Assembly: GCA_965602635.1 (NCBI GenBank)
Contig: CBFCZU010000001.1
Coordinates: 3,522-67,521 of the forward strand
Direction of reading: 5' to 3'
Origin: an uncultured Planctomycetales bacterium
Lineage (GTDB): Bacteria; Planctomycetota; Phycisphaerae; SM23-33
Length of the DNA: 64,000 nt
The position numbers were made by a program, and so were the translations under genes. Numbering within the stretch: the stretch's first letter is position 1; every line of letters starts with the position of its first letter. The notes under the pieces are model-generated. The model did not search any database. It was given only the letters and a program-made list of their open reading frames with translations, and was not told the origin of the DNA. This document shows, one piece after another, positions 13,491-62,586 of this stretch.

Positions 13491-13529
13491 TCCACGAACT
13501 ACAGTCCACGAATTACACGAATTGCACGA

Positions 13530-18333: not shown

Positions 18334-18383
18334 CACCCCAGGCCCGCCCTGCCGGGCCCAGCCATCCGCCGGAGGTCCGATCA

Positions 18384-24961: not shown

Positions 24962-25987
<1,026 letters not shown>

Positions 25988-26005
25988 GCGACGGGCAAAT
26001 GTCTA

Positions 26006-26920
26006 ATGACGAATGACGGGATCGCGAAAACTCGCAGCCGCCTGACCGAGCTTCTGGATCCGCAATTCATGGCCCGGCTGGACGCGCTGGACATACTCTC
26101 GCGGAAGATCCTTCAGGGCAAGGTCCATGGCGAGCGGCGGAGCAAGCGCCGCGGCCAGAGCGTCGAGTTCGCCGACCACCGCCCGTACGTGGCGGGCGAC
26201 GACCTGCGGTTCGTGGACTGGAACATCTACGCCCGGCTGGACCAGTTGTTCCTCAAGCTCTTCCTGGCCGAGGAGGACCTGACGGTGCACGTGCTGCTCG
26301 ACGCCACGGCCTCGATGGCCGGCGGCGAGCCGCCCAAGAGCCGTGCCGCCAGGCGCCTGGCCGCCGCCCTGAGCTACATCGCACTGGTCAACAACAACCG
26401 CCTCACCGTCAGCACCTTCGCCGACGGGCTGACCGGGCAGATCGCAAACATGCGCGGGCGGGGGTACCTCCACCAGATGGGCGAGTTCCTCCTGGAAGCC
26501 CCGGCCGAGGGGTCCTCCGACTTCGACAGGGCGTGCAGGCAGGTCGCCGCCGGGCGGATCGGCTCGGGGGTGATGATCGTGCTGTCGGACATGCTTCTCA
26601 AGGAAGGCTACGCCGACGGCCTGCGGCGGCTGATGAGCGGCAACTATGACCTGTACGTAATACAGATGCTCAGCCCGCAGGAGCTCTCGCCGGATCTGTC
26701 GGGCGACCTGAGGCTGCTGGACATGGAGGACGCCGACGAGGCGGAGGTGACCGTCAGCGCCGCCCTGCTGAGCTACTACAAGCGGACGGTGTCGGCCTAC
26801 TGCAACGAGCTGAAGGCCTTCTGCTCCCGGCGCGGGGCGGTGTACGTGCTGACCGACTCGGGCAAGCCCGTCGAGCCGCTGGTGCTGAACTACCTCAGGC
26901 GGAGAGGACTGTTGAGATAA
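26006..26920 (+). CDS. DUF58 protein (VWA-like partner of MoxR)
   Basis: 304 aa; DUF58 signature …GERRSKRRGQSVEFADHRPYVAGDDLRFVDWN…. Confidence 0.85.
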   Translation: MTNDGIAKTRSRLTELLDPQFMARLDALDILSRKILQGKVHGERRSKRRGQSVEFADHRPYVAGDDLRFVDWNIYARLDQLFLKLFLAEEDLTVHVLLDATASMAGGEPPKSRAARRLAAALSYIALVNNNRLTVSTFADGLTGQIANMRGRGYLHQMGEFLLEAPAEGSSDFDRACRQVAAGRIGSGVMIVLSDMLLKEGYADGLRRLMSGNYDLYVIQMLSPQELSPDLSGDLRLLDMEDADEAEVTVSAALLSYYKRTVSAYCNELKAFCSRRGAVYVLTDSGKPVEPLVLNYLRRRGLLR

Positions 26921-26985
26921 TGCATGATGACGAATGACCGATGGCCAGGCAGTCGCAGGGCCTGGCCGACAGGTACTGACCGATC

Positions 26986-28974: not shown

Positions 28975-29005
28975 AGTGCAATCGCGTTTCCTAACGGGTG
29001 TTGAT

Positions 29006-31165
29006 ATGGGGCGACGTTGCCTGTGGATTCTCCTGGCGCTGCTTCTTGGGGCTCTCGCGCTGCCGGCGGTCTCCCTGGCGGCCGAGGAGTTCAACGTCAC
29101 GGTCACCGTGGGCTGGGAGAACTACTATCGGCCCATGGAGTGGACCCCGATAGAGATCAACATTGCCAACAGCAAGCTCAAGAAGCCCTTCGGGGGCACG
29201 CTGTTGGTTTCGGCCCAGCAGGACGGCCTCAACAAGCTGACCGTCGGGCGCGAGTTCGTGCTCACCCGCGATAGCCCCGTGGACTGCGCCATGGTGACCA
29301 AGTTCACGTACGGGGTCGCCGATTGCCTGGTGCGGATTCTCAACGCTGGTGGGCGGACGTCCTGGTCCACTGACTTCAGCTTGATGGATTTTTCCAAAGG
29401 CGTCGAGCTGGTGCCGGTGGACGACGACGCGCTGCTTATCGGCGTGGCGGGGAGGATATCCTCCAGCCTGCTGCGCCTGGGAGGCAACAGCGCCTGCGAG
29501 CACGGGAGCGAGCGAGGGAAGGTCCACGTCAAGCGAAAGGTCCTTAACCGCCTGCCCCACGACTGGACCGGCTATGCCGGGCTTGACCTTCTCGTCCTGT
29601 ACGACCCGGACTGGGACACCCTCTCCGTTCACCAGAGCCGGGCGATCGCCCTATGGGTCACCAACGGCGGGAGGCTGCTGATCGTCCTGGGCACGCGTCC
29701 GCTGCCTGCTTCGGGCCCGATAGCGGGGCTGGTCCCGTTCCGCCCGGGTCCGCTGCGGCAGATCAAGATACCCGCTTCCGCCCTGAGCGCGTGGGGCTTC
29801 GGGCGGGCAGTTGCCAACGCCGGCGCGGAAGTGAGCTGCTGGCCCCTCGACGGCGCCGCCAAGGCCGGATGGACCGCCGACGGCGGGAAGAGCAGCTTCT
29901 TTGCTTACGGGCCGGTCGCCTTCGGCAAAGTGGCCGTGCTGGGCTTCGACCCGTACCTGCTTGTCCGGCGAACCGGCCGACCGGCCACGACCGGCAGGCC
30001 GTACCTGGGCGTCCAGCCGGCACGGGCGGCGTCAGAGCTGGCCAGGTTCTGGACGGCGCAGCTCCGACACGTCCTGGGCCCCCGTCAGATCGGCCATCAG
30101 TCAGGCGGGTGGCGCGGAGACCCGGGCTACGGCTACTATGGTGGTTTCGAGCTTGGCCGCGTCGGGCGGGGCTCCAACGCCGTCGTGGGACACCTCATGA
30201 GCATCCCGGAGATGCGCCCGTTGAGCATCTGGTGGGTGATACTCCTGCTGGCCCTGCTGGCGGTGCTGCTGGGGCCGGTGGACTACATCGTCCTGAAGCG
30301 CCTGGGCAAGCTGCCGCTCACGTGGATCACATCGACGGCCCTGATCGCCCTGTTCTCGGTTGGGGCATACTACGGCGTCCAGGCCCTCCGCGCCGGGACG
30401 ATGAAGGTCCGGGTGGTATCGGTCATCGACGCGGTGGAAGGGTCCAAAGCCGTCTGGTCCACGCAGTACGCGGGCATCTTCGCCCCGGCCAGCAAGAACT
30501 ACGGCCTCAGCGGCACCCGCCCCAACGAGTGGTGGTCCGGCATAACCGCGTCCAGGGACGAGCGCTCCTTCTACCGCCCGCGCGAAATCGCCACGAGGCA
30601 AATCTCCTGTCTCCAGGAGGACGGAGGCAACAGGCCCGCGTCCCTGCCCATCAACATATGGACCATGCAGTGCCTGTTGACCGAATCGCCCGAGGAGAAG
30701 CCGCCCTTCTCGGCCAGCGTGGAGCGGGCCGGAGGCGACCTGAAGGTCAGCATCGTCAATCACTCTGACGTTCCCATCCGCAGGGGCTACGTCCGAATGG
30801 ACGGGGATCAGAAGATGGAGTTCGGGTCCGTTGACGCGGGCGGCAAGAAGGCACACCAGGGCCGGCTGTCTCGCGCCAGGGCCTGGGACGACTGCCTCTC
30901 CAGCAGCGAAACCTACGTGACGGGCTATCCGAACGGGCGGGAGGCGTTTCCCTATTTCGAGACCGACTCGGCCTACTTCGCCAGGGGCAGCCTCCGACGG
31001 ACCGGCGCCATCCAGGAATACCTGCGCCGCGGCGCGGCGGTGGTGTGCGTGGAATACCGCGAGGCGCCCGTCTCCTTCGGCGTGGCCGGAAGAACGTGCG
31101 AGTACCACCACGTCCGGTTGGCGAGGATGGTGGTCTTTCCCAAGAGATTAGCCCGCTTGCCGTAG
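29006..31165 (+). CDS. secreted/membrane protein of unknown function (two extracytoplasmic domains around a central TM pair)
   Basis: 719 aa from ATG 29006 (ORF-track start is 28829). Signal peptide MGRRCLWILLALLLGALALPAVSLA; central TM hairpin (…LSIWWVILLLALLAVLLGPV…LIALFSVGAYYGV…); sits between the Bat/MoxR genes and the ABC-2 exporter. Confidence 0.5.
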   Translation: MGRRCLWILLALLLGALALPAVSLAAEEFNVTVTVGWENYYRPMEWTPIEINIANSKLKKPFGGTLLVSAQQDGLNKLTVGREFVLTRDSPVDCAMVTKFTYGVADCLVRILNAGGRTSWSTDFSLMDFSKGVELVPVDDDALLIGVAGRISSSLLRLGGNSACEHGSERGKVHVKRKVLNRLPHDWTGYAGLDLLVLYDPDWDTLSVHQSRAIALWVTNGGRLLIVLGTRPLPASGPIAGLVPFRPGPLRQIKIPASALSAWGFGRAVANAGAEVSCWPLDGAAKAGWTADGGKSSFFAYGPVAFGKVAVLGFDPYLLVRRTGRPATTGRPYLGVQPARAASELARFWTAQLRHVLGPRQIGHQSGGWRGDPGYGYYGGFELGRVGRGSNAVVGHLMSIPEMRPLSIWWVILLLALLAVLLGPVDYIVLKRLGKLPLTWITSTALIALFSVGAYYGVQALRAGTMKVRVVSVIDAVEGSKAVWSTQYAGIFAPASKNYGLSGTRPNEWWSGITASRDERSFYRPREIATRQISCLQEDGGNRPASLPINIWTMQCLLTESPEEKPPFSASVERAGGDLKVSIVNHSDVPIRRGYVRMDGDQKMEFGSVDAGGKKAHQGRLSRARAWDDCLSSSETYVTGYPNGREAFPYFETDSAYFARGSLRRTGAIQEYLRRGAAVVCVEYREAPVSFGVAGRTCEYHHVRLARMVVFPKRLARLP

Positions 31166-38315: not shown

Positions 38316-39612
38316 CTGTCCTTCCCGAAAACCTCATCCGCACAGGAAGCAACGGCCTTGCGGGCTTGACTGTGGGGCCGGCGGGGATGATCGGCGCGTG
38401 ATCGGAGTGGTCGGCGATGCCGGGGGCGCTTGAGCATGGCCAAATCTGGGCATGGCGCATGGTTCTCTCGTGTGCCAGACGGGACAGGATTGATGCGGGT
38501 CCGCTACGCCGCTCTCGTGTAGCGGTGGTGCAGACCACCGAGATACGCCTTGGCTACGACCTTGCCCTGCGCCGGCGGGCAGACAGGCCGAGTAAACGGC
38601 GAGTTGCGTTCCAGCGACAGGTGCAACCGCGCCTCGTGATAATAGGTGAAGAATTCGGACAGCGTGCGGCGTAGATGATCCTCGTTCAGCACGATCAGGT
38701 GGTCCAGGCATTCACGGCGGATGGATCCGATCAGACGTTCCACGTAGGGATTCTGCCAAGGAGCCCGTGGCGCAATGAGCACTTCCTCGATCCCCATGTG
38801 CTCCACCCGGTCACGGAAGTCCTGGCCGTAGATGCCGTCGCGGTCGCGAAGCAGAAAACGAGGAACTTGGTCGTAAGGAAATGCCTCTACGATCTGCTGA
38901 GCAGCCCACTGGGCGGTGGGGTTGGCCGTCACGTTGAAGTGGACCGCTTGGCGGCGATCATGCCGCAGGATGAGGAAGACGTACAGCACGCGGAACGTCA
39001 CCGTCGGAACCGTGAAGAAGTCGACGGCCGCGATCTGGCGGGCGTGATTCTTCAGGAAGGTTCGCCAGTTCTGGGAAGGCGCCTTGGGCTGTCGGATCAT
39101 GTACTTGGCGACCGTGGATTCGGCCACCGCGTGGCCCAGCAGAAGCAACTCGGATAGAATCCGCGGGGTGCCCCACATCGGGTTCTCGCGAGACATGCTG
39201 ACCTTCTCCACGAATGGTGGGCGCGGAGCTTGTGGTTATCCGGTCATGCTTTCGAACTCGGCGGGGCTGACGTAGCCCAGCGTCTCGGGCTGGACAAGGG
39301 CCAGCGCTGACCGCCAACCTGACCAGAGCCTCGACAGCCAGACCCAGAAGATCCGGTCCCGCGTGCGGAGTTTGGGGCGCTTGACGGAGCGCTGGAGCAC
39401 AGCGATCTAGCGCCGCAGGGCCAGGTTCTCGGCCATTAGTGCGGCACGACCGGCAAAGAAGCCTCGAACGAACAACCACACTGCCTGAAGAACGGCCATC
39501 CCTGAACCTCCGTTGCCGAGATAAACAGCCGGATCCTACGGCCGATGAGGCTCTGCGGCAACGGTGCAAGCCCTTCACCTGCAAGGTGGACGGAGTTTTC
39601 GGGAGGGACAGG
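38316..39612 (-). mobile_element. defective IS481-family insertion sequence (~1.3 kb) with ~20-bp imperfect terminal inverted repeats
   Basis: Right end ctgtccttcccgaaaacctc (38316-38335) matches the reverse complement of the left end (…ggagttttcgggagggacagg ending at 39612), about 17/20. It contains the transposase pseudogene below. It lies 10 bp past the tRNA-Arg terminator. Confidence 0.6.
38504..39436 (-). pseudogene. IS481-family DDE (rve) transposase, disrupted by two in-frame stop codons
   Basis: One reading frame from ATG 39436 to stop 38504: MAENLALRR-TAG-IAVLQRSVKRPKLRTRDRIFWVWLSRLWSGWRSALALVQPETLGYVSPAEFESMTG-TAA-PQAPRPPFVEKVSMSRENPMWGTPRILSELLLLGHAVAESTV… rve core …LGGLHHRYTRAA*. 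The segment between …LVQPE and SRENPMWG looks internally deleted or rearranged. Confidence 0.65.
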
Positions 39613-40182
39613 TGTGCGCTTGGCTCATAGTCGCCCGGCATGGCAGCGGCTCTGGCCCGCCCCTTGGACAATCAAGAAAACCTGCCCAACTCAGGTGATC
39701 ACCCGATTGACAGAAACAGGATTCATGATATGATTCTGTCTCAGTGAGGGGCCTCATTGCCGGGGCCATGCCTACTCGGAGGGTAGTTCCGTCCCGAAGG
39801 GACCAGCTCAATCGCTCAGCGGTGTTGTTGTGCGCTGAGGAGCGGGTCGCTCACCCGCCTTCGCCGACGCTTCGGCGGGCGGGCCTGTTTCGTCAGCCTG
39901 AATCGGCTCAGGGCGGACGGTCCGCGCTGGACTAAACGGCTGGAATGGCCCCCAGCCGGGGAACACGGCAGGCATGAGGACGCTTCGCCCGTGAGAAGCC
40001 GACGCTTGCACGCGGAGCTTTCAGCGATGAAGGCCCACGCCGGTCGTCGGGAGAAGGCCACATGGGGAATGGCGGTTCACCTTAGGCCGGTGCGGTTGGT
40101 GGCGGATTCCGTCCTGGAACTGTCCACAGCGCCGCGGTGTCGCTGCGCCTGACCTATCGGCCGGAGAGAACAGGAGAGGGAG

Positions 40183-41259
40183 ATGGCAACGAGGAGCCTT
40201 GAACTTCGGTTTTGGGGTGGCGCTGCGTTCGTGCTCGCCGTGCTGGCGGGCACTTCCCAGCTCGGCGCGATCAACTACACGGTCACGAAAGTCGCCGACA
40301 GCGGTCAGAGCGTCGTACTAGCGGAAAACCCGTACGGAGAGATTGCCTTCAGTACGAACGGAGTGATGCTGTACTCAGACGGGGAAGTGCATGACGTGGG
40401 GCCCACCCCGCAGTACTACGCCGGTCCGGACATCAACTCCTCCGGCATGGTCGTGTTCTGGGGCTGGCCGGGCGACACTTCCCGGGGCGGGGTCTGGCTG
40501 TATGACCCCGCGGCAGGGACGACGAACATCAGCGACGATCCCACGGCGCGCTATCCCAAGATCAACGATTCGGGGACGATCGTCTGGCAAGAACAGGGCG
40601 GCATCTGGAAGTATCACAACGGTCAGATCGGCTCCGTCGCACCGGACGGAACGGATCCGGAAATCGGCAACGGCGGTCATATCGCGTGGGTAACCGCGGC
40701 GCATAGGTTACAGATCACCGACGGCGTCTCCACAGAGACCTTGCCGCAAACGGTGGTGCACCACTGGAAGGTGAGCATCAACTCATCGGGACAGGCTGCC
40801 TACGCCGCGCAGGAAGGCGGCGGCTACTCCACGTACCTATATGATGGCACCGAGGCCATCCGGGTAGGGAACGGTGGCCAAAGCTGCCCCCAGCCCAAGA
40901 TCAACGACGGGGGAGACGTTCTCTACGCCCTGGAAGATGGGAACGACGATGTCCTTGTCCTGCGCCGCGAATCGGGTGAAGAGGTCGAACTGCACCGATC
41001 AAGCTGGTCAGGGATCAACGGCTTCGACCTGAACAATCTCGGCAACTCCGTCTACTACGCCGACTACTCCAACCTGACCGTCGTGATAGGCCAGGAGCGG
41101 ACCTACCTGCCCGGCTCGGCCTCCTATGTGAACATCAACGACCACAACTTTGTCGCCTGGGCACGAGACGGCGTCTACCTGGCGGTCCCCGAACCCGCCA
41201 CGCTGTCGCTGCTGGCGATTGGGGGGCTGGCACTGATCAGGCGTCGAAGAAGGAAGTAG
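40183..41259 (+). CDS. PEP-CTERM sorting-domain protein (secreted, unknown function)
   Basis: 358 aa; signal peptide; C-terminus …VPEPATLSLLAIGGLALIRRRRRK*. Confidence 0.8.
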   Translation: MATRSLELRFWGGAAFVLAVLAGTSQLGAINYTVTKVADSGQSVVLAENPYGEIAFSTNGVMLYSDGEVHDVGPTPQYYAGPDINSSGMVVFWGWPGDTSRGGVWLYDPAAGTTNISDDPTARYPKINDSGTIVWQEQGGIWKYHNGQIGSVAPDGTDPEIGNGGHIAWVTAAHRLQITDGVSTETLPQTVVHHWKVSINSSGQAAYAAQEGGGYSTYLYDGTEAIRVGNGGQSCPQPKINDGGDVLYALEDGNDDVLVLRRESGEEVELHRSSWSGINGFDLNNLGNSVYYADYSNLTVVIGQERTYLPGSASYVNINDHNFVAWARDGVYLAVPEPATLSLLAIGGLALIRRRRRK

Positions 41260-41502
41260 CAGCGAGAGGGTGTCGCAATGCCGAGGAGCCTTGAGGGACA
41301 AGTATCACACACATGCTCCGACCTCCGCTCGGGGAAGCGGCGGAGTGGCCGGCTGAGCCTTCCCCGCCAGTGGTTCGGCGGGCGCCGGCCAAAGTCGAGG
41401 GGCAGGGCGAGTCTCGCTCGTTCGTCCCTTCCTGCCTGGCCCGCACGGGCGAGGTTCCGAGTCACGCATCCTATAGCTGGAATCTTCTGAAAGGTCACCG
41501 CA

Positions 41503-43368
41503 ATGACTACTGCCAGGCTTGCCGGAGTTTCATTGACGCTCCTCCTTCTGAGCCCCTCGACGCTGACAGCCCAGGTCGCACAGGGCGACCCTCTCTGCTT
41601 TGACTCCCAGTGGGGCGCTCTTTTCAAGTACGACATGCAGACAGGAGCCAAGACCCTTATAAGTGGCTACGGGAACGGTCCCGATCTTGTCGGGGATGGA
41701 CCAATCTGGCCCGTAAGCACGCATATCATCTACTCCCGTCAAAGGCTGCACGCGGGTACCGATGGAACCGTGTTCCTAGCGTACAGATCGCAGTTGTATG
41801 CAGTGGATCCAATGACCGGCAACCGCCGGATGTTCGACTTCGGTGGGGACTACAACAACTTAACTTGCTTGTCCGATCCCGCAGATCCCGACAGAGTTTA
41901 CGTCTTCGCCGCGGCTACCTCTACCGCATACGAGAGGCACAGGGACGTCTACGAACTCACCCTATCGACAGGCTCCAAGGTCAAACTGGCAACTGACTTT
42001 ACCATTCCTCCCGACCGGAACCCGGGATGGACTTTCGCCGAGTCCGACCCGAATGGCAGAATCGTTTTCGTCGGTGGCAGGTGGACCGGAAGCGTCGAGC
42101 ACGGGGCTTGGGTCTATGGCAGCCCCACGGGCACCGCCATTCAGCAAATTGACACATGCCCGATGTACAACCTAACGGACATCCACTTTGATTCCACGGG
42201 CAACCGCCTGCTGCTATCAGGCGACTTTGGTATATACGTCTCCCAGCTTGCGCCGGCGGGCGACTACGCGCCAATAGCGCCCATCGACATTCCGACCAAT
42301 GCATTCACAGGGCTTCAGGGCTTGTGCAATAGCGGCGGGCGCTTGTTGGGAATAGATGGTGCGCGCGTCAAGATCGTTGATATTGACGCGAGAACGACTG
42401 TCGATCTACCGAACGGTCCCGGTGTGGGATATGGGTTTGCTGCTCCACCTGGGCGAGGCATCATGAGTGGTTCGACAATACTGGGGGCCGGCGATGGTGA
42501 GTTTCTATGGGTCGATCCCGCGGCCGGCAACACCTGGACGGCGAGCGCCTTATGCCAATCGAACGACAGGATTGCGGGCGAGACTCCTGACTCTATCTAC
42601 TATAAGCAGGGGTACTACCGGGGGCCGGTGACGCGGTACGACAAGGCCACCGGCGAGGAGGAGGAGATCTTCACGCCTTCAGATATGATTACCGGCCTGG
42701 CTATGCTGGACTCGACTCACTTCGCATACACACGCGGGGCCTATGAGACCGGGTGTTTCGTATATGACACGGCTACGCAAACGACTCAAAAGGTTGCATC
42801 GGAGCACCTCTACAATGTCTATCCCGATGGACATGGGGGCATGTACGTTCTGTCGAAGTCGGATGGGTTCCATAAGTGCACGGTCGAGCGGATGTCCGCG
42901 GATGGGCAGGAGAGGGAGGTTGTTTACACGTACGATTCGCCATCGTATAGCGGATTCACGCAGTTCGTCGTTAACGCTGACGAGGAGGTGATCTACTTCG
43001 TGCCACACCGGGAGTTGGCTCTGTATTCTGGGCTCTTGGGCGGCGACACCGCTACTCGGATAAGTGGTTGCGGTGCAAACGACTATGAAAGTCCCTCGGA
43101 GTGGGTCGGAACAGGCCCTTCGTGGGGAGGAGGGCTCGTGCTATATGGCATAGCGGACGGCTTCGCGTATCTGGGTGACTCATATCACAACGGTCTGTTC
43201 AGGGTCGACCTGGCTACCGGAGAACGCGAGCTGCTCTCGGCGACGGAATACTACCGGTGGGTGGCCTTAGACGGGATTTGCACCTACATCCCCGAGCCCA
43301 CCACGCTGTCGCTGCTGGCCCTCGGGGCGGTAACGTTGATCCCCCGCAAGAGACACGCCTTTGTGTGA
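41503..43368 (+). CDS. PEP-CTERM sorting-domain protein (large beta-rich secreted protein)
   Basis: 621 aa; signal peptide MTTARLAGVSLTLLLLSPSTLTAQ; C-terminus …YIPEPTTLSLLALGAVTLIPRKRHAFV*. Confidence 0.8.
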   Translation: MTTARLAGVSLTLLLLSPSTLTAQVAQGDPLCFDSQWGALFKYDMQTGAKTLISGYGNGPDLVGDGPIWPVSTHIIYSRQRLHAGTDGTVFLAYRSQLYAVDPMTGNRRMFDFGGDYNNLTCLSDPADPDRVYVFAAATSTAYERHRDVYELTLSTGSKVKLATDFTIPPDRNPGWTFAESDPNGRIVFVGGRWTGSVEHGAWVYGSPTGTAIQQIDTCPMYNLTDIHFDSTGNRLLLSGDFGIYVSQLAPAGDYAPIAPIDIPTNAFTGLQGLCNSGGRLLGIDGARVKIVDIDARTTVDLPNGPGVGYGFAAPPGRGIMSGSTILGAGDGEFLWVDPAAGNTWTASALCQSNDRIAGETPDSIYYKQGYYRGPVTRYDKATGEEEEIFTPSDMITGLAMLDSTHFAYTRGAYETGCFVYDTATQTTQKVASEHLYNVYPDGHGGMYVLSKSDGFHKCTVERMSADGQEREVVYTYDSPSYSGFTQFVVNADEEVIYFVPHRELALYSGLLGGDTATRISGCGANDYESPSEWVGTGPSWGGGLVLYGIADGFAYLGDSYHNGLFRVDLATGERELLSATEYYRWVALDGICTYIPEPTTLSLLALGAVTLIPRKRHAFV

Positions 43369-43515
43369 GGGAATGGAGGAGGCCGTGGCGTACCGGACGG
43401 CCGCTCAAGTGCTCACGGGTTGTTGTTTGCTGATGAGCGGGCCGCTCAGCCCTTTCGTCAGCTGGAGTGAGAGAGTGTGTGCGTCGTGCGGATGCAATAG
43501 GAGAGGAGCGGGACG

Positions 43516-46500
43516 ATGAAAAGGCAAGTTGCGGCGATGTGTGCTGCTGGGCTGGTCTTGGCCTTGGGTTCGGCGGCAACGGCGACAGTGAACATCGAGA
43601 CCGTCGCCGTGGGCAACGCGGGCAATGCGCCGGACACAAGGTATGAGACGCCCGGCTATGGGGCGGTGAGCTACGAGTACAACATCGGCAAGTACGAGGT
43701 GACGGCCGGGCAGTACACCGAGTTCCTCAACGCCGTGGCGGCCACAGATACCTATGGTCTGTACAGCGGGCGTATGGCCCTGCCAGTGGCCCCGGACAAG
43801 GGCTGCAACATCCAGCGCGGCGGCAACCCGGGCAGCTACACGTACAGCCTGGCTGTCGACTGGGCGGACCGCCCGGTGAACTTCGTGAGCTGGGGCGACG
43901 CGGCGCGATTCGCCAACTGGCTGCACAACGGCCAACCGACCGGGGCGCAGGACCTGACCACGACGGAGGACGGGGCGTACTACCTTAACGGCGCCACGGG
44001 CGGTGGGCTCCTGCTGGCCGTCAGCCGCGAGGCGGACTGGACGTGGGCGATCCCGACCGAGGATGAGTGGTACAAGGCGGCCTACTACGACCCGGAGACA
44101 GCCAGCTACTACGACCATCCGACGAGCAGCCACACCCGGCCGGGCTACGTGAACGACAGCGGCAACCTGAGCGGGACGGGGAATCCCTTCGTGGAAGGGG
44201 GAACGGACCCCGGCGGCTACGCGACGTGGGACGGTGACGGCGGGACCGACGGGATCGGGATCCCCTACTACCGCACCGTAGTCGGGGAATGGGAGAACTC
44301 GGACAGCCCCTACGGCACGTTCGACCAGGGGGGCAACGTCTGGGAATGGAACGAGGCCTTCCCGTACGGTCGCGGCTTGCGGGGCGGGTCGTTCCTCAAC
44401 TCCGGCGACTTCCTGCGCGCGTCGTACCGGGGCTCGCGCGACCCGACGGACGAGGATATGAACTTCGGCTTCCGCGTTTCCGATGTCCCCGAACCCGCCA
44501 CACTGTCGCTGCTAGCGCTGGGCGGGCTGGCGTTGATCCGCCGGAGGCGGCGCGGGCTGCTGCCCGTGCTGGTGGTAGCGGCGATCGCCGTGGCGGCACT
44601 AGGGTTGGCAACGCCATGTCAGGCGGGGGGCGACTGGGTCATAAGGCCGATCGCCTCGGACCTGGTGGGCGATGCGGCGGTCGCCGTAGACAGTCAGGGG
44701 AATCCACATGTCGCATGGAGCTGCTTCACCGGGACTGGCTGGGGTGGCGACAAAGAGGAGTGGCAGTACAAGTACGCAAGGTGGGACGGCTCGAGCTGGC
44801 AAACGACGCAGTTCACTGCCCTCGCCACGCACCGGAGCAGGGACACATCGCTGGTCGTAGACGGCCAGGACAGGCCGCACATGGCTTTTTATGTCTACGA
44901 TCGGAACACTGCCATGAGCCGGCTCGTCTATGTCACGCCCGGCAGCGGCGGCGCGTGGTTGACCGAGGACGTCTTCAGCGGCCCAAGCGGGTCGGGCGCT
45001 GACCCAGATCTGGCCCTGGACAGCCAGGGGCGGCCGCACATCAGCCACGTGGGCCGGTACTCCCGCTTCGACGGGACCCAATGGCAGACGGAGGACGCTT
45101 GGCCGATCGGTTTCCGCAATAGCCTGGCCCTCGATGCCCAGGACACCCCCCACGTGGCATCGCCCGACGGTATGTACGGGTACCCCAGCTACGGCACCAA
45201 GCACCAAGGCCAATGGACCCAGACCTTCATCGTGACCCCGACAGATGCCTGGGGAATGTCCATCGACCTCGATGCCCAAGACAAGCCCCACGTTGCCTGG
45301 TGGGACTCGTCCAAGGCCGTGCCGGCGTACAGCTGGGACACGGGAAGTGGATGGGACACGGAATGGATCCCCGATCAGCACCACAGCAGCTTCGGCAGCA
45401 AGGGCGTCTCCCTGGAGCTGGACGACCAAGGCCGGGCCCACATCGCCTACAGGAGGTTCTACTCCTCCACGTCCAAAGACGCGGCGTATGCCGTGTGGGA
45501 CGGCGCATCGTGGCATCTCGACACGATCGCAGAGGATAGGTACGTCGTGGGTAAGAACTCCCTCGCGCTCGGGCTGGCCGGAGACGCCCATGTCCTCATC
45601 GGCGAGGTAACCGGGAGCATAAGCGGCGAATTCTATCACGCCTACATCCCCGAGCCCGCCACGCTGTTGCTGCTGGGCCTTGGTGCGGCGGTGCTTCTCG
45701 GCAGGCGCAGGCGTCGGGCAGCGTGGGTACCTGTGCTTGCGGCCTGCGCGGCGCTTTCGTGGCTCTCCCCATTGACAGCATCCGGTGCAACCCCCCGCTT
45801 TCAGCCGTTGGGCCATTTGGCATCGGGGCATGACGAGAGTCATGCGCACGGGGTCTCTGACGACGGTTCCACTGTCGTCGGGTCCAGCCGAGAATCTGAG
45901 TCGGAGGCCTTCCGTTGGACGGAGGAAACCGGGATGCTGCCCTTGTCGGGGGGGCGAAGTGCAGCACTGGCCGCGTCAGCGGACGGGTCCGTCGTGGTGG
46001 GCTTCCGTTGGGGCTTGTCCTCGACCGGCCAAGCGTTCCGCTGGACCGAAGAAAGCGGGACGGTGTTCTTGCCTGACCTCCCCTCTCCCCTACCGAGGAG
46101 CTGGGCCTACGACGTGTCGGCCGATGGATCAGTGGTAGTGGGGAAGAGCAACACTGATTACGATGACTCCAGTTTGCAGAATAGCGAGGCGTGGCGCTGG
46201 ACGGCCGAAGCGGGCACGGTCGGGCTCGGCGATCTGCCGGGGTGGAGATTCGACAGCATAGCCAGAGGCGTCTCGGCCGATGGTTCCGTGGTGGTGGGGC
46301 AGGGAGTCACTGGCGTCCCTTCGAAGGGCTCGCTGGCCTTTCGCTGGACCCAGGAAACCGGAATGGTGCCGTTGGGCGACCTGCCGGGGAGCCGTAGCAC
46401 CGTGGACGACAACAGTTATGCCTTTGGTGTGTCGGCCGATGGTCTGGTGGTGGTTGGCCACGGCAGCACCGACCAGGACAAAGAGGCCTTTCGCTGGACG

Positions 46501-46749
46501 GCCGCTACCGGCATGGTCGGGCTCGGTGACTTCCCCGGCGGGACTGTCCAGAGCAGCGCGTATGCTGCGTCGGGAGATGGGTCGAGAGTCGTCGGCTTCG
46601 GTGCCGCCGCCTCGGGCGTGAGGGCCGCCATCTGGGACGCCGGCCACGGCATGCGCGACTCGGGGACCTGCTTGTCAACGACTACGGCCTGGACCTCACC
46701 GGCTGGACGCTCAAGGAAGCTCACGACATCACCCCCGACGGTACAGTAA
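43516..46749 (+). CDS. fused tandem PEP-CTERM modules in one ORF: FGE-sulfatase (SUMF1-like) module, beta-propeller-repeat module, HAF-repeat module (C-terminus frameshifted)
   Basis: 1077 aa without a stop. Module 1 (43516-44553): signal peptide; FGE-sulfatase motifs (…VNFVSWGDAARFANWL…, …GNVWEWNE…, …RGGSFLNS…, …GFRVSDV…); then PEPATLSLLALGGLALIRRRRR. Module 2 (44554-45717) starts directly with GLLPVLVVAAIAVAALGLATPCQAGG, holds ~7 repeats of …DxQGxPHxAW…W.G..W…, and ends …IPEPATLLLLGLGAAVLLGRRRRR. Module 3 (45718-46749) starts directly with AAWVPVLAACAALSWLSPLTASGA and holds HAF-family repeats (…EAFRWTEETGM…GVSADGSVVVG…). The frame is lost near 46655. Confidence 0.6.
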   Translation: MKRQVAAMCAAGLVLALGSAATATVNIETVAVGNAGNAPDTRYETPGYGAVSYEYNIGKYEVTAGQYTEFLNAVAATDTYGLYSGRMALPVAPDKGCNIQRGGNPGSYTYSLAVDWADRPVNFVSWGDAARFANWLHNGQPTGAQDLTTTEDGAYYLNGATGGGLLLAVSREADWTWAIPTEDEWYKAAYYDPETASYYDHPTSSHTRPGYVNDSGNLSGTGNPFVEGGTDPGGYATWDGDGGTDGIGIPYYRTVVGEWENSDSPYGTFDQGGNVWEWNEAFPYGRGLRGGSFLNSGDFLRASYRGSRDPTDEDMNFGFRVSDVPEPATLSLLALGGLALIRRRRRGLLPVLVVAAIAVAALGLATPCQAGGDWVIRPIASDLVGDAAVAVDSQGNPHVAWSCFTGTGWGGDKEEWQYKYARWDGSSWQTTQFTALATHRSRDTSLVVDGQDRPHMAFYVYDRNTAMSRLVYVTPGSGGAWLTEDVFSGPSGSGADPDLALDSQGRPHISHVGRYSRFDGTQWQTEDAWPIGFRNSLALDAQDTPHVASPDGMYGYPSYGTKHQGQWTQTFIVTPTDAWGMSIDLDAQDKPHVAWWDSSKAVPAYSWDTGSGWDTEWIPDQHHSSFGSKGVSLELDDQGRAHIAYRRFYSSTSKDAAYAVWDGASWHLDTIAEDRYVVGKNSLALGLAGDAHVLIGEVTGSISGEFYHAYIPEPATLLLLGLGAAVLLGRRRRRAAWVPVLAACAALSWLSPLTASGATPRFQPLGHLASGHDESHAHGVSDDGSTVVGSSRESESEAFRWTEETGMLPLSGGRSAALAASADGSVVVGFRWGLSSTGQAFRWTEESGTVFLPDLPSPLPRSWAYDVSADGSVVVGKSNTDYDDSSLQNSEAWRWTAEAGTVGLGDLPGWRFDSIARGVSADGSVVVGQGVTGVPSKGSLAFRWTQETGMVPLGDLPGSRSTVDDNSYAFGVSADGLVVVGHGSTDQDKEAFRWTAATGMVGLGDFPGGTVQSSAYAASGDGSRVVGFGAAASGVRAAIWDAGHGMRDSGTCLSTTTAWTSPAGRSRKLTTSPPTVQ

Positions 46750-46751
46750 TC

Positions 46752-47375
46752 GTGGGCTGGGGCATCAATCCTGCTGGCGATCACGAGGCTTGGCGTGCCG
46801 TCATTCCCGAACCCGCCACGCTGTCGCTTCTGGCCCTCGCCGGTCTGGACGGCGTTTTTGCGCCGTCGGTGGGGAACTATGGCCGAGGGTTTCTTGCGGC
46901 TTACGGCAGCTGCGACGTCGAGGTGACCTACAACGTCGGCGACGAGACAATCGAGGGCGCCTGGGCGGTGCTCATGGGCTCCTTGTACCAGGACGACTCC
47001 GATGCGGGGCTGGCCGAGGGCCATTTCAAGGACGTTACGATCCTTCTCAACGATGCGCAGGGGCAGGCCCTACTAGAGGGATCCGTCCCTTCGCTCTACC
47101 TCCGCGAGCTGACCGACGCCGAGGGTGTGCTGGTCGGCACCGGGCTCCTGGAGATCACCGACGGCGACCTGGCCAGACGGTTTCCCTATGTCGAAGGCAA
47201 CTTCCTGGACGTCCACATCGAGCTTGACCCGCCGGAGATCGACGGCTTCGGGCAGAGCTTCGGTGGGGTATGCGAGTTGACGATCCGCCCGATCCCCGAG
47301 CCCGCCACGCTGGCGTTGCTGGCGGTTGGCGGTCTGGCTCTGATTCGGCGTCGCAAGAGACACGCCTTTGTGTGA
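46752..47375 (+). CDS. frameshifted continuation of module 3 plus a fourth domain; carries one degenerate internal and one terminal PEP-CTERM
   Basis: GTG-started ORF …GWGINPAGDHEAWRAVIPEPATLSLLALAGLDGVFAPSVG… (a PEP motif whose TM/Arg tail has been replaced) … ending …IRPIPEPATLALLAVGGLALIRRRKRHAFV*. Upstream in this frame the sequence reads DLLVNDYGLDLTGWTLKEAHDITPDGTVIV, the expected end of the HAF module. Confidence 0.55.
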   Translation: MGWGINPAGDHEAWRAVIPEPATLSLLALAGLDGVFAPSVGNYGRGFLAAYGSCDVEVTYNVGDETIEGAWAVLMGSLYQDDSDAGLAEGHFKDVTILLNDAQGQALLEGSVPSLYLRELTDAEGVLVGTGLLEITDGDLARRFPYVEGNFLDVHIELDPPEIDGFGQSFGGVCELTIRPIPEPATLALLAVGGLALIRRRKRHAFV

Positions 47376-47535
47376 GGGAATGGAGGAGGCCGTCGGGTAC
47401 CGCACGGCCGCTCAAGTGCTCAGCGGTGTTGTTGTGCGCTGAGGGAACGGGGCGCTCGCCTGTTCCGTTGGCCTTGACAAGAAGATGCGCGCCGCGTGCA
47501 ACATGCGGCCTGTCAGGCAGAAAGGGAGCGGAGCG

Positions 47536-48690
47536 ATGAAGGCAGACCGGATAGGTCGTTTGGCGATGTTGGTGGTGTGCGCAGCCGCCGGATCGGCGTT
47601 CGCGTCTGGATTCCCCCACACCACGGACACGCTCTCCGAGGCGCGGTACTACTTGTCCGCCACCACGGTGGGCAGCAAGGCCATTTTCGCTGGCGGGGCC
47701 GCCTCGACCGGCTACAGCGACGTTGTCGACATTTACGACGCCGACGCGGGCCTGTGGTCCACGGACACACTCTCCCAGGGGCGGTATTACCTGTCCGCCA
47801 CGTCGGTGGGGAACAAGGCGATCTTCGCGGGCGGATTCACCGGCCCGCCAGGCGCGATCCCCAGCAACGTGGTGGACATCTACGACGCCAGCACGGGCCT
47901 GTGGACCACGGACACGCTGTCAAAGGCGCGAGGCATAATGGCCGCGACGACGGTCGGCAGCAAGGCCATCTTCGCAGGGGGATACGTAGACGGCGTCGAG
48001 GGCTACAGCGATGTCGTGGACATCTACGATGCCGATACCGGCCTGTGGTCCACGGATACGCTCTCGCAGGCACGCTGTTATCTCGCCGCGACGACAGCAG
48101 GCGGCAAAGCCATCTTCGCGGGGGGCAGCGGTGACAGTGATGTGGTCGACATCTACGACCCCGATACAGGCTTGTGGTCGACGGACGCACTGTCGCAAGG
48201 GCGGCACTGGCTGGCGGCAACTGCGGTAGGCGACAAGGCGATTTTCGCCGGCGGGGCCATTGGTGACAGCGCCTACAGTGACGTCGTGGACATCTACGAT
48301 GCCGTCACAGGGCTGTGGTCCACGGACACGCTCTCGCAAGCGCGAGGTTATCTTGCTGCGACATCACTGGACGGCAAGGCGATGTTTGCAGGAGGCAACG
48401 GCCCCAGCGATGTCGTGGATATTCTCGATCCGGGCACGGGGCAGTGGACCACGGACGCGATCTCGCAGGGGCGATACTATCTATCCGCGACGACCGTGGG
48501 CGACATGGCGTTCTTTGCCGGTGGCGCTACTGGACCTGGACCTGACCCCAGCGGCTACAGCAACGTCGTGGACATCTACACTATTCCAGAACCGGCCACG
48601 CTCGCCCTGCTGGCCTTGGGCGGTCTATCGCTGATCCGGCGAAGGAAGAGCGGAGGAGGGTTGTTCCGCTCTATCGCTCAGCGAAGTTGA
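47536..48690 (+). CDS. Kelch-repeat PEP-CTERM protein
   Basis: Start MKADRIGRLAMLVVCAAAGSAFA. Eight ~40-aa Kelch-like repeats (…ARYYLSATTVGSKAIFAGG…SDVVDIYDADAGLWSTDTLSQ…). C-terminus …IPEPATLALLALGGLSLIRRRKSGGGLFRSIAQRS*. Confidence 0.8.
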   Translation: MKADRIGRLAMLVVCAAAGSAFASGFPHTTDTLSEARYYLSATTVGSKAIFAGGAASTGYSDVVDIYDADAGLWSTDTLSQGRYYLSATSVGNKAIFAGGFTGPPGAIPSNVVDIYDASTGLWTTDTLSKARGIMAATTVGSKAIFAGGYVDGVEGYSDVVDIYDADTGLWSTDTLSQARCYLAATTAGGKAIFAGGSGDSDVVDIYDPDTGLWSTDALSQGRHWLAATAVGDKAIFAGGAIGDSAYSDVVDIYDAVTGLWSTDTLSQARGYLAATSLDGKAMFAGGNGPSDVVDILDPGTGQWTTDAISQGRYYLSATTVGDMAFFAGGATGPGPDPSGYSNVVDIYTIPEPATLALLALGGLSLIRRRKSGGGLFRSIAQRS

Positions 48691-48716
48691 TGTGCGCTGA
48701 GGGAACGGTCGCGGGC

Positions 48717-51596
48717 CTATTCTTCGGCCAGCATGGCCGCAACGGCGGCTCGCACGCGGGCGAACTGTTCGCTGGAGAGGTTGTGGAAGATGGTCTCGCC
48801 GGCCTCGTCAAGGAAGCGCTCCTGCGTTTGGCCCTTCAGTTCGAGCAGACCTTTGAGCATCGCGCCGAGCTGTCTCCTGTCGTAGCCGCGCTTGCGGGCG
48901 AGCAGGGCGAGATACTCAACGTCCTGCTGGCCTCGCCGCAGGGCCTTCAGTCGAACGCTACAGACCACCTGCTCCTTGGGACCGCCGGGCGGCGGGGGGA
49001 CAAGTATGGCCGTCGTCGAGGCCCTGCGATGGTTGGCAGGCGAGCCGATGGTATTCCACGGCAGCAGCCCGTCGGCTCCGAGCAGATAGGCGGATACGGG
49101 CCAGGCCTCGGCGTTGAGATTGCTGGCGCGAATCGGGTTGAGGCTGCCGTAGTTATAGAACGTCATCCCCCTGCCCATCATCTCGGCGCACCGCTCGTGC
49201 TTGGTGTAGAAGGTCTTTGAGACGCACATCAGATCCACCACGCCATCCAGCCAGCGGCGCTGGCGGTGCGGGCGGCTTATGTCGCCGCGGTATATGAACC
49301 GCCCCCCCTCGGCGCCCGCGACCGCCTGCTTGAACAGACGCCCCCAGTAGGCTATCGCAAGCCAGTCGTCGCGGTTCTGCGGCTCGTCCAGGCACCAGAA
49401 GCCGAGCTTGCCCTTGGTCCACGTGGGCTTGTTGTTCAGGTAGAACTGCATCTCAGTGCGCGTCCAACCCTTTTTCTCAAAGTGGCGCATGAAGTCAGCA
49501 GTCACCGCCCGAAAGCCCCGGCCGTACTCCTCGTCCATCAACTCCTCTATGGGCCCAGCCGTCAGGAAGTGCTTCTGCAGGTCGGTGGACTTGAATGCGT
49601 AATGGTCGCGGAAGTTGATCGGCCAGGCCTCGCAGAACGGCAGGTATTGGCTGGCCAGGGGCATGCCCGCGCGGGGCATGTCCGCAAAGGCCGACCCGTC
49701 CAGCAGCGGGCCGAAGTATGCGTCGTAACCGCTCCAGTCGGCCACGCGCATCTCCGCACCCTTGCCCTGGAGCGGAATCGCATATCGCGTCTTGGCCGAG
49801 CCGTCCTGCGAGTAGGGCAGGACGTTCAGCGTGGTCCTGTGGGCGTGGGCCAGACGGAACCAGGCGTAGTCGCCGGTCAGCGGACGGGAGGAGTATGCGT
49901 TAAGCTCGCAGTTGAATGAGAGCGTATCGGGCAGGACGGGCGAGCGGACCTCCAGGCTGACGGGCACGTCGAAGGGCTCGGCGCCCTTTATCGCCACCGT
50001 GATCGTACCTCGATACCGGCCGGGCGCTGTGTCCTTCGGTATGCGGATGTCCACCAGCAGCGACTGATTGCGCTGGGAGGGCACCTTGTTGTCGGCGTTG
50101 GGTATTGCGAACGTGGTGCCCGGCCCCAGCGGAACGCACAGGTCGCCCATCCATTCGCCGTCGCGGATGTACCACTGTCGGAAGACGGATATATTGCTCG
50201 CCGGAACCTTCGCCCCGCCAGGCCCGCTGAGCGAACCAGCCGTGATACCGATGTCCGCAACCGGCGTCTCGACCGCTTCGATAAGTAATTGGAAGGCGAC
50301 TATCTCGTTTCGACAGCCCGCCAGGGTCACCACCCCGTCTCGTCCGTTCCAGTAGATGTTGCCCTTACGGTACTCGCCGGCCGGCTTGGCGCCGTATTGC
50401 TTCAGGCCCACCTCTTCCAGCAGGTTGCCCGTTACGGGGTGGGCGCTCTCGCAGTCGCCATATGCCCACAGGCGGACCTTGCCCGTGCGGATGGTCGGAG
50501 AGCCTTTGGGATTGGCCTTTATCGCCACATCCGGCACGACCGGCACCGCTAGGGCCGCCGACGCTCGCCCGTCGGTCTCTGTCGTTGTAGAAGCCAGACC
50601 GCTTGCGCCTATGGACCTGACAGCGACCGTGACGTCGCCCCTCGGCGGCAGGTCGGTTATCACCAGCGACATCTTCCCCCCACCTTTCGGCGGACGCGGG
50701 ATTTGCCAGAGCGGAAGGAGGGTGTTCGGCTTAGTCGATCCGCGCCGGCGGTATGAGACCTCTGCCCTGGCCAGGTCCTTCGGGACCGACACCGAGACCT
50801 TGACGGCCCCGGCAGTCGGGGACGCATGCGCCGGCGCGGGCCTGACGCTGAACGTCGGGGCAGTTGGCCTGCCGGTTGCCTTGCCGGCGGAGTCGACCAG
50901 GAGGTAAGGCCCGTGGCCCGACTCACGAGTGTGGAGGCGGTAGGGGATCTTGGTCTGGCCCTTCTCCTCGAACAACGCCAGTCCATACGTGCCGCCGTTT
51001 ACAAGCGCCTGGACTATCGGCGCCGGCAGTTCGATGGCCACCCAGTCGCCCTGGAGGTGACGCACGGTGGCGGTGTGACTGATGGAGTTGCCCAGGTCGA
51101 ACGTGACGTCCGTCAGCTCGCTCTGGAACCCAGCCCATCGCCGCCGGCCGAAGTCGGCCCAGTTGGCCATCGCCCCGCCGCCGGGCCTGGCGGGTTTTGT
51201 GCCCGTGCCCGTGCCTTCCTTCCAGGGCGTCGATATGGTCGACACGCTCACCACGCGGAGCTTGTCCGCATCCGGCGAGGCCGCCTGGCGGATCATCAGC
51301 ACCCCGCCGGTCAGCTCGCGGCCGCGAACCTTGGATGTGTCGAAATCGGCCAGGAAGTAAAACGCGCTGTCCTTGGCCTCCTTCGTATAGTGGATGCCGT
51401 GAAACGCCACCTCCTTGGCCGCGCCGTAGTTGATCTTGTAGATGTCGGCGCTGCTGGGGGCCTTCTTGATGTGGATGGCTGTGTCGGCTGTGCACTCAAG
51501 GCGGATGGTCTTTCGCTCTGCACCCAGTGCAAAGCATGCTGCCAGAAGAACCGTCATTACCGCTGCCCAAGTGGCCGGTGAACCAGACGTACTCAT
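48717..51596 (-). CDS. large secreted protein, possible glycoside-hydrolase-like (family unassigned)
   Basis: ~960 aa from MSTSGSPATWAAVMTVLLAACFALGA (ATG 51596; ORF-track start is 51860); long beta-rich N-terminal region; C-terminal part contains …FWCLDEPQNRDDWLAIAYWGRLFKQA…. No confident family. Confidence 0.5.
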   Translation of the reverse strand: MSTSGSPATWAAVMTVLLAACFALGAERKTIRLECTADTAIHIKKAPSSADIYKINYGAAKEVAFHGIHYTKEAKDSAFYFLADFDTSKVRGRELTGGVLMIRQAASPDADKLRVVSVSTISTPWKEGTGTGTKPARPGGGAMANWADFGRRRWAGFQSELTDVTFDLGNSISHTATVRHLQGDWVAIELPAPIVQALVNGGTYGLALFEEKGQTKIPYRLHTRESGHGPYLLVDSAGKATGRPTAPTFSVRPAPAHASPTAGAVKVSVSVPKDLARAEVSYRRRGSTKPNTLLPLWQIPRPPKGGGKMSLVITDLPPRGDVTVAVRSIGASGLASTTTETDGRASAALAVPVVPDVAIKANPKGSPTIRTGKVRLWAYGDCESAHPVTGNLLEEVGLKQYGAKPAGEYRKGNIYWNGRDGVVTLAGCRNEIVAFQLLIEAVETPVADIGITAGSLSGPGGAKVPASNISVFRQWYIRDGEWMGDLCVPLGPGTTFAIPNADNKVPSQRNQSLLVDIRIPKDTAPGRYRGTITVAIKGAEPFDVPVSLEVRSPVLPDTLSFNCELNAYSSRPLTGDYAWFRLAHAHRTTLNVLPYSQDGSAKTRYAIPLQGKGAEMRVADWSGYDAYFGPLLDGSAFADMPRAGMPLASQYLPFCEAWPINFRDHYAFKSTDLQKHFLTAGPIEELMDEEYGRGFRAVTADFMRHFEKKGWTRTEMQFYLNNKPTWTKGKLGFWCLDEPQNRDDWLAIAYWGRLFKQAVAGAEGGRFIYRGDISRPHRQRRWLDGVVDLMCVSKTFYTKHERCAEMMGRGMTFYNYGSLNPIRASNLNAEAWPVSAYLLGADGLLPWNTIGSPANHRRASTTAILVPPPPGGPKEQVVCSVRLKALRRGQQDVEYLALLARKRGYDRRQLGAMLKGLLELKGQTQERFLDEAGETIFHNLSSEQFARVRAAVAAMLAEE

Positions 51597-62386: not shown

Positions 62387-62586
62387 TCATAACCCGGAGG
62401 TCGCGGCCATTAGTGCGGCACGACCGGCAAAGAAGCCTCGAACGAACAACCACACTGCCTGAAGAACGGCCATCCCTGAACCTCCGTTGCCGAGATAAAC
62501 AGCCGGATCCTACGGCCGATGAGGCTCTGCGGCAACGGTGCAAGCCCTTCACCTGCAAGGTGGACGGAGTTTTCGGGAGGGACAGG
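62387..62586 (+). repeat. third tRNA-Met-like att-like core (62387-62406) abutting a solo copy (62405-62586) of the 182-bp left end of the IS at 39431-39612
   Basis: 62405-62586 appears identical to 39431-39612, including the transposase ATG on the minus strand, which is truncated after a few codons here. Confidence 0.65.

Follow-up and report, generated by a model that had tools for sequence, protein, structure and literature searches.

Candidate secreted polyproteins of Planctomycetota whose modules are joined by internal PEP-CTERM signals and signal-peptide-like segments

The DNA analysed here, a stretch of 64,000 nucleotides from an uncultured Planctomycetales bacterium (assembly GCA_965602635.1, contig CBFCZU010000001.1; hereafter the window), carries a 1077-codon open reading frame (ORF) in which two complete PEP-CTERM signals, each made of a PEP motif, a transmembrane helix and an Arg cluster, are located inside the coding sequence and are each followed by a signal-peptide-like segment and a further module (Table 1). 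In our judgement the ORF is probably a real in-frame fusion of once separate neighbouring genes, each encoding a signal peptide, a folded module and a PEP-CTERM. The explanation that we favour, with somewhat better than even confidence, is that it specifies a polyprotein of fused secreted modules, which would be threaded through the Sec pathway and cut by signal peptidase I and exosortase. Polyproteins of this build form a widespread class, mainly in Planctomycetota, in which the hairpin junctions are maintained.

Profile searches with PF07589 and TIGR02595 each revealed two matches above the curated cut-offs within the ORF, at residues 323-345 and 711-734, and the two junction sequences quoted in a preliminary description of this DNA were found letter for letter. 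After the first and second signal, 731 and 343 residues of the product remain, respectively; the position at the C-terminal end that belongs to the definition of a PEP-CTERM is occupied by neither of them and only by the signal of a fourth module downstream. In a hidden Markov model (HMM) trained on terminal signals of other genomes, internal PEP-CTERMs 1 and 2 scored 35.1 and 23.2 bits, and the four terminal PEP-CTERMs of neighbouring genes scored 23.7-37.2 bits. A hydropathy scan (15-mer Kyte-Doolittle, threshold ≥1.8) showed exactly five hydrophobic peaks in the ORF, namely the N-terminal signal peptide and two per junction, with RRRRR between the members of each pair. These peaks occur in the order expected for the topology put forward earlier, that is, a helix running out to in, an Arg loop and a helix running in to out, which is therefore self-consistent. 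The earlier statement that the Arg cluster passes directly into a hydrophobic helix and an AXA-like site held at both junctions, in the hydropathy scan as well as in the signal-peptide calls, which were made by a heuristic check and not by SignalP. Read as a Sec signal, junction 1 consists of RRRRR as the n-region, GLLPVLVVAAIAVAALGLA as the h-region, and small residues at -3 and -1 in either GLA (before T) or CQA (before G); junction 2 consists of RRRRR, AAWVPVLAACAALSWL and SGA (before T). The two segments start at residues 347 and 735, and thus not at the N-terminus of the product. At the true N-terminus, the mature sequence that follows MKRQVAAMCAAGLVLALGSAATA aligns with those of FGE-family relatives.

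The identities given earlier to the modules, an FGE-sulfatase domain, a seven-bladed propeller and HAF repeats, were supported, while the count of three was not, as the chain appears to have been one of four modules. Module 1 matched PF03781 at 72.4 bits (cut-off 23.3) over model positions 35-253 of 255, and all 35 invariant columns of the FGE-family alignment are present in it. The AlphaFold2 model of module 2 (pLDDT 92.3) contains 28 strands forming seven blades, its sequence carries seven D-x-Q-G/D-x-P-H motifs, and the best PDB matches to the model are seven-bladed propellers, with TM-scores up to 0.68. Module 3 matched TIGR02913 at 80.6 bits (cut-off 22.65). The same 1077-residue product is encoded on contigs of five independent assemblies (two metaSPAdes, one MEGAHIT, one JGI and one NCBI metagenome-assembled genome, GCA_964461575.1), which show 99.9% DNA identity to the window over 18-23 kb and are identical throughout at both junctions. 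Only two single-nucleotide polymorphisms, both synonymous, were seen within the ORF among the assemblies, a number too small for an informative selection test in this population either way.

Comparison with other proteins revealed that internal signals have the properties of terminal ones. The examined set comprised 204 diverged multi-module proteins with 378 internal PEP-CTERMs, up to nine in one protein. With an HMM trained solely on 83 terminal PEP-CTERMs from genome loci, the median score of the 378 internal signals was 22.7 bits vs 23.2 bits for 149 terminal signals in the same proteins (Mann-Whitney p=0.15). A hydrophobic core and a small-x-small site were present a few residues at most after 90% of 351 internal signals, compared with 76% of true N-termini and 2% of random internal positions, and the predicted cleavage offset was 21 residues at internal sites and 20 at true N-termini. 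The alignment of junctions shows an invariant PEP and, at the cleavage site, a -1 Ala with at least 90% conservation; the mature N-termini downstream of internal sites match those of true N-terminal signal peptides. The loops between the two hydrophobic segments are short, with a median of 8 residues, and strongly positive, with a median net charge of +5; the charge was at least +2 in 99.7% of 323 junctions, in line with the prediction of the positive-inside rule for a cytoplasmic loop. Met was absent from 86% of these 323 loops.

The architecture was not confined to close relatives of the ORF. Among the 120 best matches to it, which are FGE-family proteins with 38-69% identity labelled Phycisphaerae, Planctomycetota, Pirellulales or Sedimentisphaerales, 62 contained internal PEP-CTERMs before a further module, 78 in total. 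A junction-only profile of 53 positions, searched against 1.84 billion representative proteins, gave 12,311 matches at E≤0.001, a set that must be expected to contain plain terminal signals as well, and 291 at E≤1e-10. Among the best 143 new proteins from this search, 137 contained at least one internal junction and 65 at least two; a terminal PEP-CTERM was present in addition in 110 of the 137. In a Pfam census of 49 proteins, a PEP-CTERM match was present in all of them and an FGE match in only 11, which ruled out that the architecture is special to FGE domains; the other modules included Laminin_G_3, DUF3466/HAF, NHL, FG-GAP, F5/8-type-C and further domains. An unusual genetic code behind the fusions in databases was likewise rejected, because under translation table 11 the frames were continuous, with a single terminal stop, at every locus whose DNA was read (the window, seven GTDB-locus junctions, P0009, P0047 and P0261). 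The same architecture was found on multi-megabase contigs, in L038 on 4.6 Mb and in P0047 on 7.8 Mb.

The most extreme example is P0261, a 2500-codon ORF (L088, 96-7598; GCA_020427265.1, JAGQOS010000182.1) with nine PEP motifs between Laminin_G_3 and F5/8-type-C modules; a signal-peptide-like segment comes after eight of the nine. The internal signal peptides of this protein are diverged in sequence and have kept signal-peptide features in 8 of 9 cases; the junction at residue 1937 has no hydrophobic core. Between P0061 and P0077, identity was 71% for module 1 with module 1, 70% for module 2 with module 2, and 52-57% for module 1 with module 2; therefore, this two-module fusion is older than their divergence. 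Other pairs showed greater similarity between the two modules of one protein than across proteins, which points to recent duplication or concerted evolution. A gene for an Rce1-like/CPBP intramembrane protease (L087, 19156-19857, minus strand) is located 7 kb from the two-module polyprotein P0047, among other PEP-CTERM genes; fusions between EpsH and CAAX-protease-like proteins were noted by Haft et al. 2006 (PMC1569441).

How such a chain would be made and processed can be outlined from its anatomy. The Sec threading, the cleavage by each enzyme and what becomes of the products we infer from the positive-inside rule and from the PEP-CTERM/exosortase model of Haft et al. 2006 (PMC1569441). Fusion would have removed the stop codon and the spacer at each junction, together with the start of the following gene, so that the Arg cluster of the PEP-CTERM would double as the positive n-region of the next signal peptide. 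The result would be a tight helical hairpin, with the PEP-CTERM helix running out to in, a cytoplasmic loop of five Arg residues and the signal-peptide core running in to out. The N-terminal signal peptide would launch the export of module 1 through SecYEG, the PEP-CTERM helix would act as a stop-transfer segment while the Arg loop is kept in the cytoplasm, and the next hydrophobic segment would restart export, so that all modules would end outside the inner membrane. Signal peptidase I would then cleave after the small-x-small site of each internal signal peptide, and exosortase would cleave at each PEP motif and hand the module on as it would a single-module substrate, leaving a hairpin of about 45 residues in the membrane. 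We give about an even chance to the broader proposal that these junctions are a cleavable punctuation used in Planctomycetota and their relatives, by which signal peptidase I and exosortase would divide a single translation product from one mRNA, reaching about 2500 residues in length, into up to ten different surface proteins, a strategy that has not been described.

The third module of the window and its surroundings differ from this picture. A one-nucleotide deletion at about 46659/46660, after GMRD (gac at 46657-46659), shifts the frame within module 3 and was seen in every assembly and every cluster member. After the deletion the -1 frame reads LGDLLVNDYGLDLTGWTLKEAHDITPDGTVIVGWGINPAGDHEAWRAVIPEPATLSLLALAGL, and this stretch matches the C-terminal part of an HAF module in L082, from another genome, with 61% identity (E=3e-19); the conserved HAF C-terminal stretch and the PEP-CTERM of module 3 are readable in the -1 frame only. 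Because the -1 frame continues as the HAF C-terminus into the PEP motif, module 3 formerly owned the PEP-CTERM at 46803. This relic signal consists of half a helix, lacks both the Arg cluster and a subsequent signal peptide, and runs into the small fourth module, which ends in a normal terminal PEP-CTERM and a stop codon. The frameshift, the loss of the in-frame PEP-CTERM of module 3 and the fourth module had all escaped the preliminary description; they emerged from the -1-frame translation and the L082 match. The chain was, on the reading of these letters, ancestrally one of four modules and is partly decayed in this copy. A search for relatives of module 4, by which junction 3 might have been reconstructed, gave essentially none beyond this population, apart from weak partial matches. 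Programmed frameshifting was rejected, as the shift site gac/tcg is not slippery and junctions and spacers folded no better than shuffled sequence (z -1.25 to +0.98). A terminator-like match at 46838 was within chance expectation (6 found vs 4.4 expected). In P0251, from an ENA contig of 4770 bp, a small deletion (at about 47369-47415 of the window) removes the stop that follows module 4, so that the ORF is 40 codons longer (RHAF/KCSAVLL...); therefore, stop-removing deletions at the tails of PEP-CTERM genes occur in this population.

Table 1 Features of the fused reading frame and the adjacent PEP-CTERM genes (positions in the window; a slash within a sequence marks a predicted cleavage site or, for the deletion, the shift site)
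Feature	Position	Strand	Evidence or remark
Two single-module PEP-CTERM genes upstream	40183-41259; 41503-43368	+	Own stop and spacer each
Fused ORF as called, modules 1-3	43516-46749	+	ATG start; final 29 codons out of frame
N-terminal Sec-type signal peptide, MKRQVAAMCAAGLVLALGSAATA/TVNIETV	43516-43584	+	Hydrophobic peak at residues 4-21
Module 1, FGE-sulfatase (SUMF1/EgtB/PvdO-type) domain, intact	43585-44484	+	PF03781
Internal PEP-CTERM 1: VPEP, transmembrane helix ATLSLLALGGLALI, RRRRR	44485-44553	+	PF07589, TIGR02595
Internal signal-peptide-like segment 1: GLLPVLVVAAIAVAALGLA/TPCQA/GG	44554-44631	+	No in-frame ATG; sole GTGs within the hydrophobic core
Module 2, seven-bladed beta-propeller (BNR_4-like), intact	44632-45645	+	AlphaFold2 model, PDB matches
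Internal PEP-CTERM 2: IPEP, transmembrane helix ATLLLLGLGAAVLLG, RRRRR	45646-45717	+	PF07589, TIGR02595
Internal signal-peptide-like segment 2: AAWVPVLAACAALSWLSPLTASGA/TP	45718-45789	+	Hydrophobic peak
Module 3, HAF-repeat domain, in-frame part	45790-46659	+	TIGR02913; repeat family D5/D9
One-nucleotide deletion site, gac/tcg where gac ctc is expected	46657-46662	+	Frameshifts module 3
C-terminal end of HAF module, -1 frame: LGDLLVNDYGLDLTGWTLKEAHDITPDGTVIVGWGINPAGDHEAWRAV	46659-46802	+	Likeness to L082
Relic PEP-CTERM 3, -1 frame: IPEPATLSLLALAGL	46803-46847	+	Partial HMM match, 20.1 bits
Module 4, small orphan domain	46848-47291	+	Weak partial matches only outside the population
Terminal PEP-CTERM 4, IPEPATLALLAVGGLALIRRRKRHAFV, and stop codon	47292-47375	+	PF07589, TIGR02595; normal terminal signal
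Single-module Kelch-repeat PEP-CTERM gene downstream	47485-48690	+	Pfam/TIGR matches

Each neighbouring PEP-CTERM gene has its own stop codon, after which comes a spacer of 110-240 nt; these spacers have a conserved element in common that is absent from the fused junctions. The element, about 76-100 nt long, extends from the RKRHAFV-stop tail of PEP-CTERM genes into the spacer (43345-43420, 47352-47427 and 48666-48708); two copies are 93% identical and the third is partial, and its folding was no better than that of shuffled sequence. The Kelch-type protein downstream of the chain contains seven tandem units of 129-147 nt with 60-84% DNA identity. Beyond the array, a 190-bp direct repeat (98.9% identical) occurs at 39423-39612 and 62398-62586, 23 kb apart, and the first copy adjoins an rve_3 integrase ORF (38504-39211, minus strand). 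The repeat pair brackets the PEP-CTERM gene array together with GH123 and PQQ-propeller genes and may be an insertion sequence remnant or a composite element. Elsewhere in the window, an 824-residue ORF (19451-21925, plus strand) combines a BPD_transp_1 ABC-transporter permease match (residues 338-502) with a C-terminal NHL-repeat propeller, an unusual pairing, and adjoins a solute-binding-protein gene (18330-19391). An operon of the MoxR AAA ATPase/DUF58/BatA-VWA aerotolerance type (24962-31165, plus strand) and an MBOAT and AlgX-like O-acetylation pair (12036-15275) represent the ordinary chromosomal context of a polysaccharide-active planctomycete.

Several results weigh against the polyprotein explanation. 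Fusion is a minority state: among 95 PEP-CTERM motifs at 79 genome loci, which form a less biased sample, 84 were terminal and 7 were internal with more than 150 codons after them, so that the fusion is recurrent but infrequent. In this small sample, the 7 in-frame fusions compare with 4 stop losses out of frame. At this locus it is confined to one species-level population, as modules 1-3 were found together only in members of the same population in a collection of 5.8 billion protein sequences, with no fused orthologue in related species. The preliminary description had suggested looking in relatives for the modules as separate genes, and this was borne out for module 2, whose nearest relatives, P0121 and P0122 (42-45% identity over 89-98% of the length), are encoded by stand-alone genes; each protein, about 390 residues long, starts with its own signal peptide and ends in a PEP-CTERM. 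The fusion at this locus thus appears to be young. The copy is moreover partly decayed: module 3 carries a fixed frameshift, and junction 3 is truncated. About 14% of the 323 loops contain Met, and some junctions, such as that of L080, retain a downstream ATG; the downstream modules of Met-bearing junctions could also be translated separately. No exosortase gene was found in the 64-kb window (about 30 large ORFs; Pfam annotation of 33.5-56.7 kb). The use of a non-C-terminal PEP-CTERM by exosortase and cutting by signal peptidase at internal sites are both predicted steps. Finally, Haft et al. 2006 (PMC1569441) described the PEP-CTERM as C-terminal, with a median of 3 residues after the signal and fewer than 10 in 87% of cases, and suggested that the few long-tailed, non-terminal cases are probably non-functional and more variable. 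For the present class, the data contradict that view.

Four other explanations were weighed, two of which accept the fused product or its reading frame as real. If the hairpins were left uncleaved, the product would be a permanent multi-pass membrane protein, with two transmembrane hairpins and three periplasmic domains held in the inner membrane after removal of the N-terminal signal peptide. The hydrophobic segments and positive loops would indeed give a stable topology of four transmembrane segments, and exosortase action on non-terminal signals goes beyond the account of Haft et al. 2006 (PMC1569441), in which the signal is C-terminal virtually without exception. However, a plain membrane anchor needs neither the invariant PEP nor the conserved -1 Ala of the internal sites, nor internal signals that score like terminal ones, and the match between internal mature N-termini and those after true signal peptides also argues against it; we consider this arrangement unlikely. 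Translation of the downstream modules mainly from internal start codons at the junctions, with the read-through product as an incidental by-product, would draw on the in-frame GTGs in both internal hydrophobic cores (44566 and 45733) and on a GGAGG at 44543, and is plausible for the minority of loops with Met, as in L080, where an ATG stands right after the Arg cluster. For the window, in-frame ATG is absent at both junctions, the GGAGG is 18 nt from the GTG so that a well-spaced Shine-Dalgarno sequence is lacking, and a signal peptide started at a GTG would have no charged n-region. The predominance of Met-free loops and the lack of the neighbours' conserved spacer at the junctions point the same way, and ribosomes from upstream must read through because there is no stop codon. 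Zero sigma-70-like promoter sites were found within 40000-49500. Separate translation as the main route is, on this balance, distinctly improbable.

The remaining two explanations deny that the fused product has a function or that the fusion exists. In one, the fusion would be a by-product of deletions in a tandem PEP-CTERM array near mobile-element remnants, and its product would be non-functional or not made. Local support for this is real: the module 3 frameshift is fixed, junction 3 is truncated, module 4 is an orphan, the rve_3 integrase ORF and the 190-bp repeat are nearby, a population variant carries the stop-removing deletion by module 4, and a single population has the fusion. The first two modules and the two hairpins are nevertheless intact and free of degenerate features, and the junction type has been retained in hundreds of diverged proteins and across the pair of about 70% identity described above, so that the architecture itself is not a product of decay; we give little credence to decay as the full account of this locus. 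In the other, an assembly or sequencing artefact would have deleted the stop codons, a concern raised by the metagenomic origin of the data and by the seven PEP-CTERM-coding stretches within 8 kb (between 41183 and 48644). The agreement of five independent assemblies, from different assemblers and samples, at both junctions and at the frameshift rules this out for practical purposes and upholds the earlier argument against an assembly error. A collapse of repeats could not have created the junction, because an Arg cluster followed directly by a signal-peptide core is absent from the unfused genes, and the architecture is present on the multi-megabase contigs of L038 and P0047; an artefact has next to no probability.

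The polyprotein explanation can be compared with several known systems. Canonical PEP-CTERM/exosortase (EpsH, Xrt) substrates are likewise composed of an N-terminal signal peptide, an extracytoplasmic module of variable type and a tail of PEP, a helix of about 14 residues and a basic cluster; here, in contrast, the unit is not terminal and is repeated two to nine times per frame, and its basic cluster also serves a signal peptide downstream. At the junctions of flavivirus polyproteins (prM/E/NS1), an internal signal sequence, cleaved by signal peptidase, comes after a stop-transfer helix. The similarity is that one product is threaded across a membrane by means of hairpins whose second helix doubles as the signal peptide for the protein that follows and is cleaved on the opposite side, whereas the flavivirus case is viral, belongs to the eukaryotic endoplasmic reticulum, shows no sequence kinship, has no PEP-like sorting motif and leaves its proteins anchored by helices. 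A bacterial parallel is FbcH of Bradyrhizobium japonicum, which Thony-Meyer and co-workers reportedly described in 1991 as a cytochrome b-c1 precursor with an internal signal peptide. FbcH is similarly a bacterial polyprotein in which cleavage of an internal Sec-type signal peptide yields two proteins per ORF, but its only junction separates two subunits of one complex, and it lacks a sorting signal, repeated modules, surface display and sequence kinship. The LPXTG/sortase, PGF-CTERM/archaeosortase, GlyGly-CTERM/rhombosortase and IPTL-CTERM systems share the combination of a motif, a helix, a basic tail and a dedicated enzyme, and differ in being described as strictly C-terminal. In P0039, internal IPTL-CTERM-like signals (VPTVSEWGLVAMVMLVLSAGTVVLRR) are followed by signal-peptide-like segments and further FGE modules, and the polyprotein layout may, judging from this protein, not be limited to PEP-CTERM. 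In the open-access literature, we found no description of internal or tandem PEP-CTERMs, of exosortase polyproteins or of repeated internal use of related signals, although curators may know the pattern from unpublished work.

Tandem multidomain FGE-sulfatase proteins contain the same FGE modules in the same order as the chains described here, without helices, a basic cluster or a signal peptide between the domains. In P0069, P0102, P0095, P0002 and P0004, several FGE domains are joined directly, and some linkers still contain a PEP as a relic, without a helix (LPEPWVT, LPEPATVVIDW). One family thus includes separate genes, polyproteins linked by hairpins, and tandem FGE domains that are joined directly. 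The directly linked proteins look like the end state after deletion of a hairpin, and junction 3 of the window is an intermediate towards directly linked domains. The hairpin would render fusion of secreted-protein genes topologically harmless, because both modules still reach the outside and stay separable; such fusions would survive and could later lose the hairpin.

The presence of canonical PEP-CTERMs repeated inside proteins will be unexpected to a specialist. If the internal copies are processed, exosortase recognition would be independent of a nearby free C-terminus, and the junctions offer a simple test of the substrate requirements of exosortase, in a field with very little biochemistry. 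Genes of this kind receive single-domain names, such as 'SUMF1/EgtB/PvdO family nonheme iron enzyme', and if the explanation is true, annotation pipelines that demand a terminal signal, or signal peptides at the N-terminus only, miscount the surface proteins of Planctomycetota. The hairpin would then be a topologically neutral route to gene fusion, from which later deletion would lead to multidomain proteins, making a pathway of domain accretion visible. The chains would represent a bacterial strategy of secreted polyproteins, in which several surface proteins are made in fixed stoichiometry and co-regulated from one start codon.

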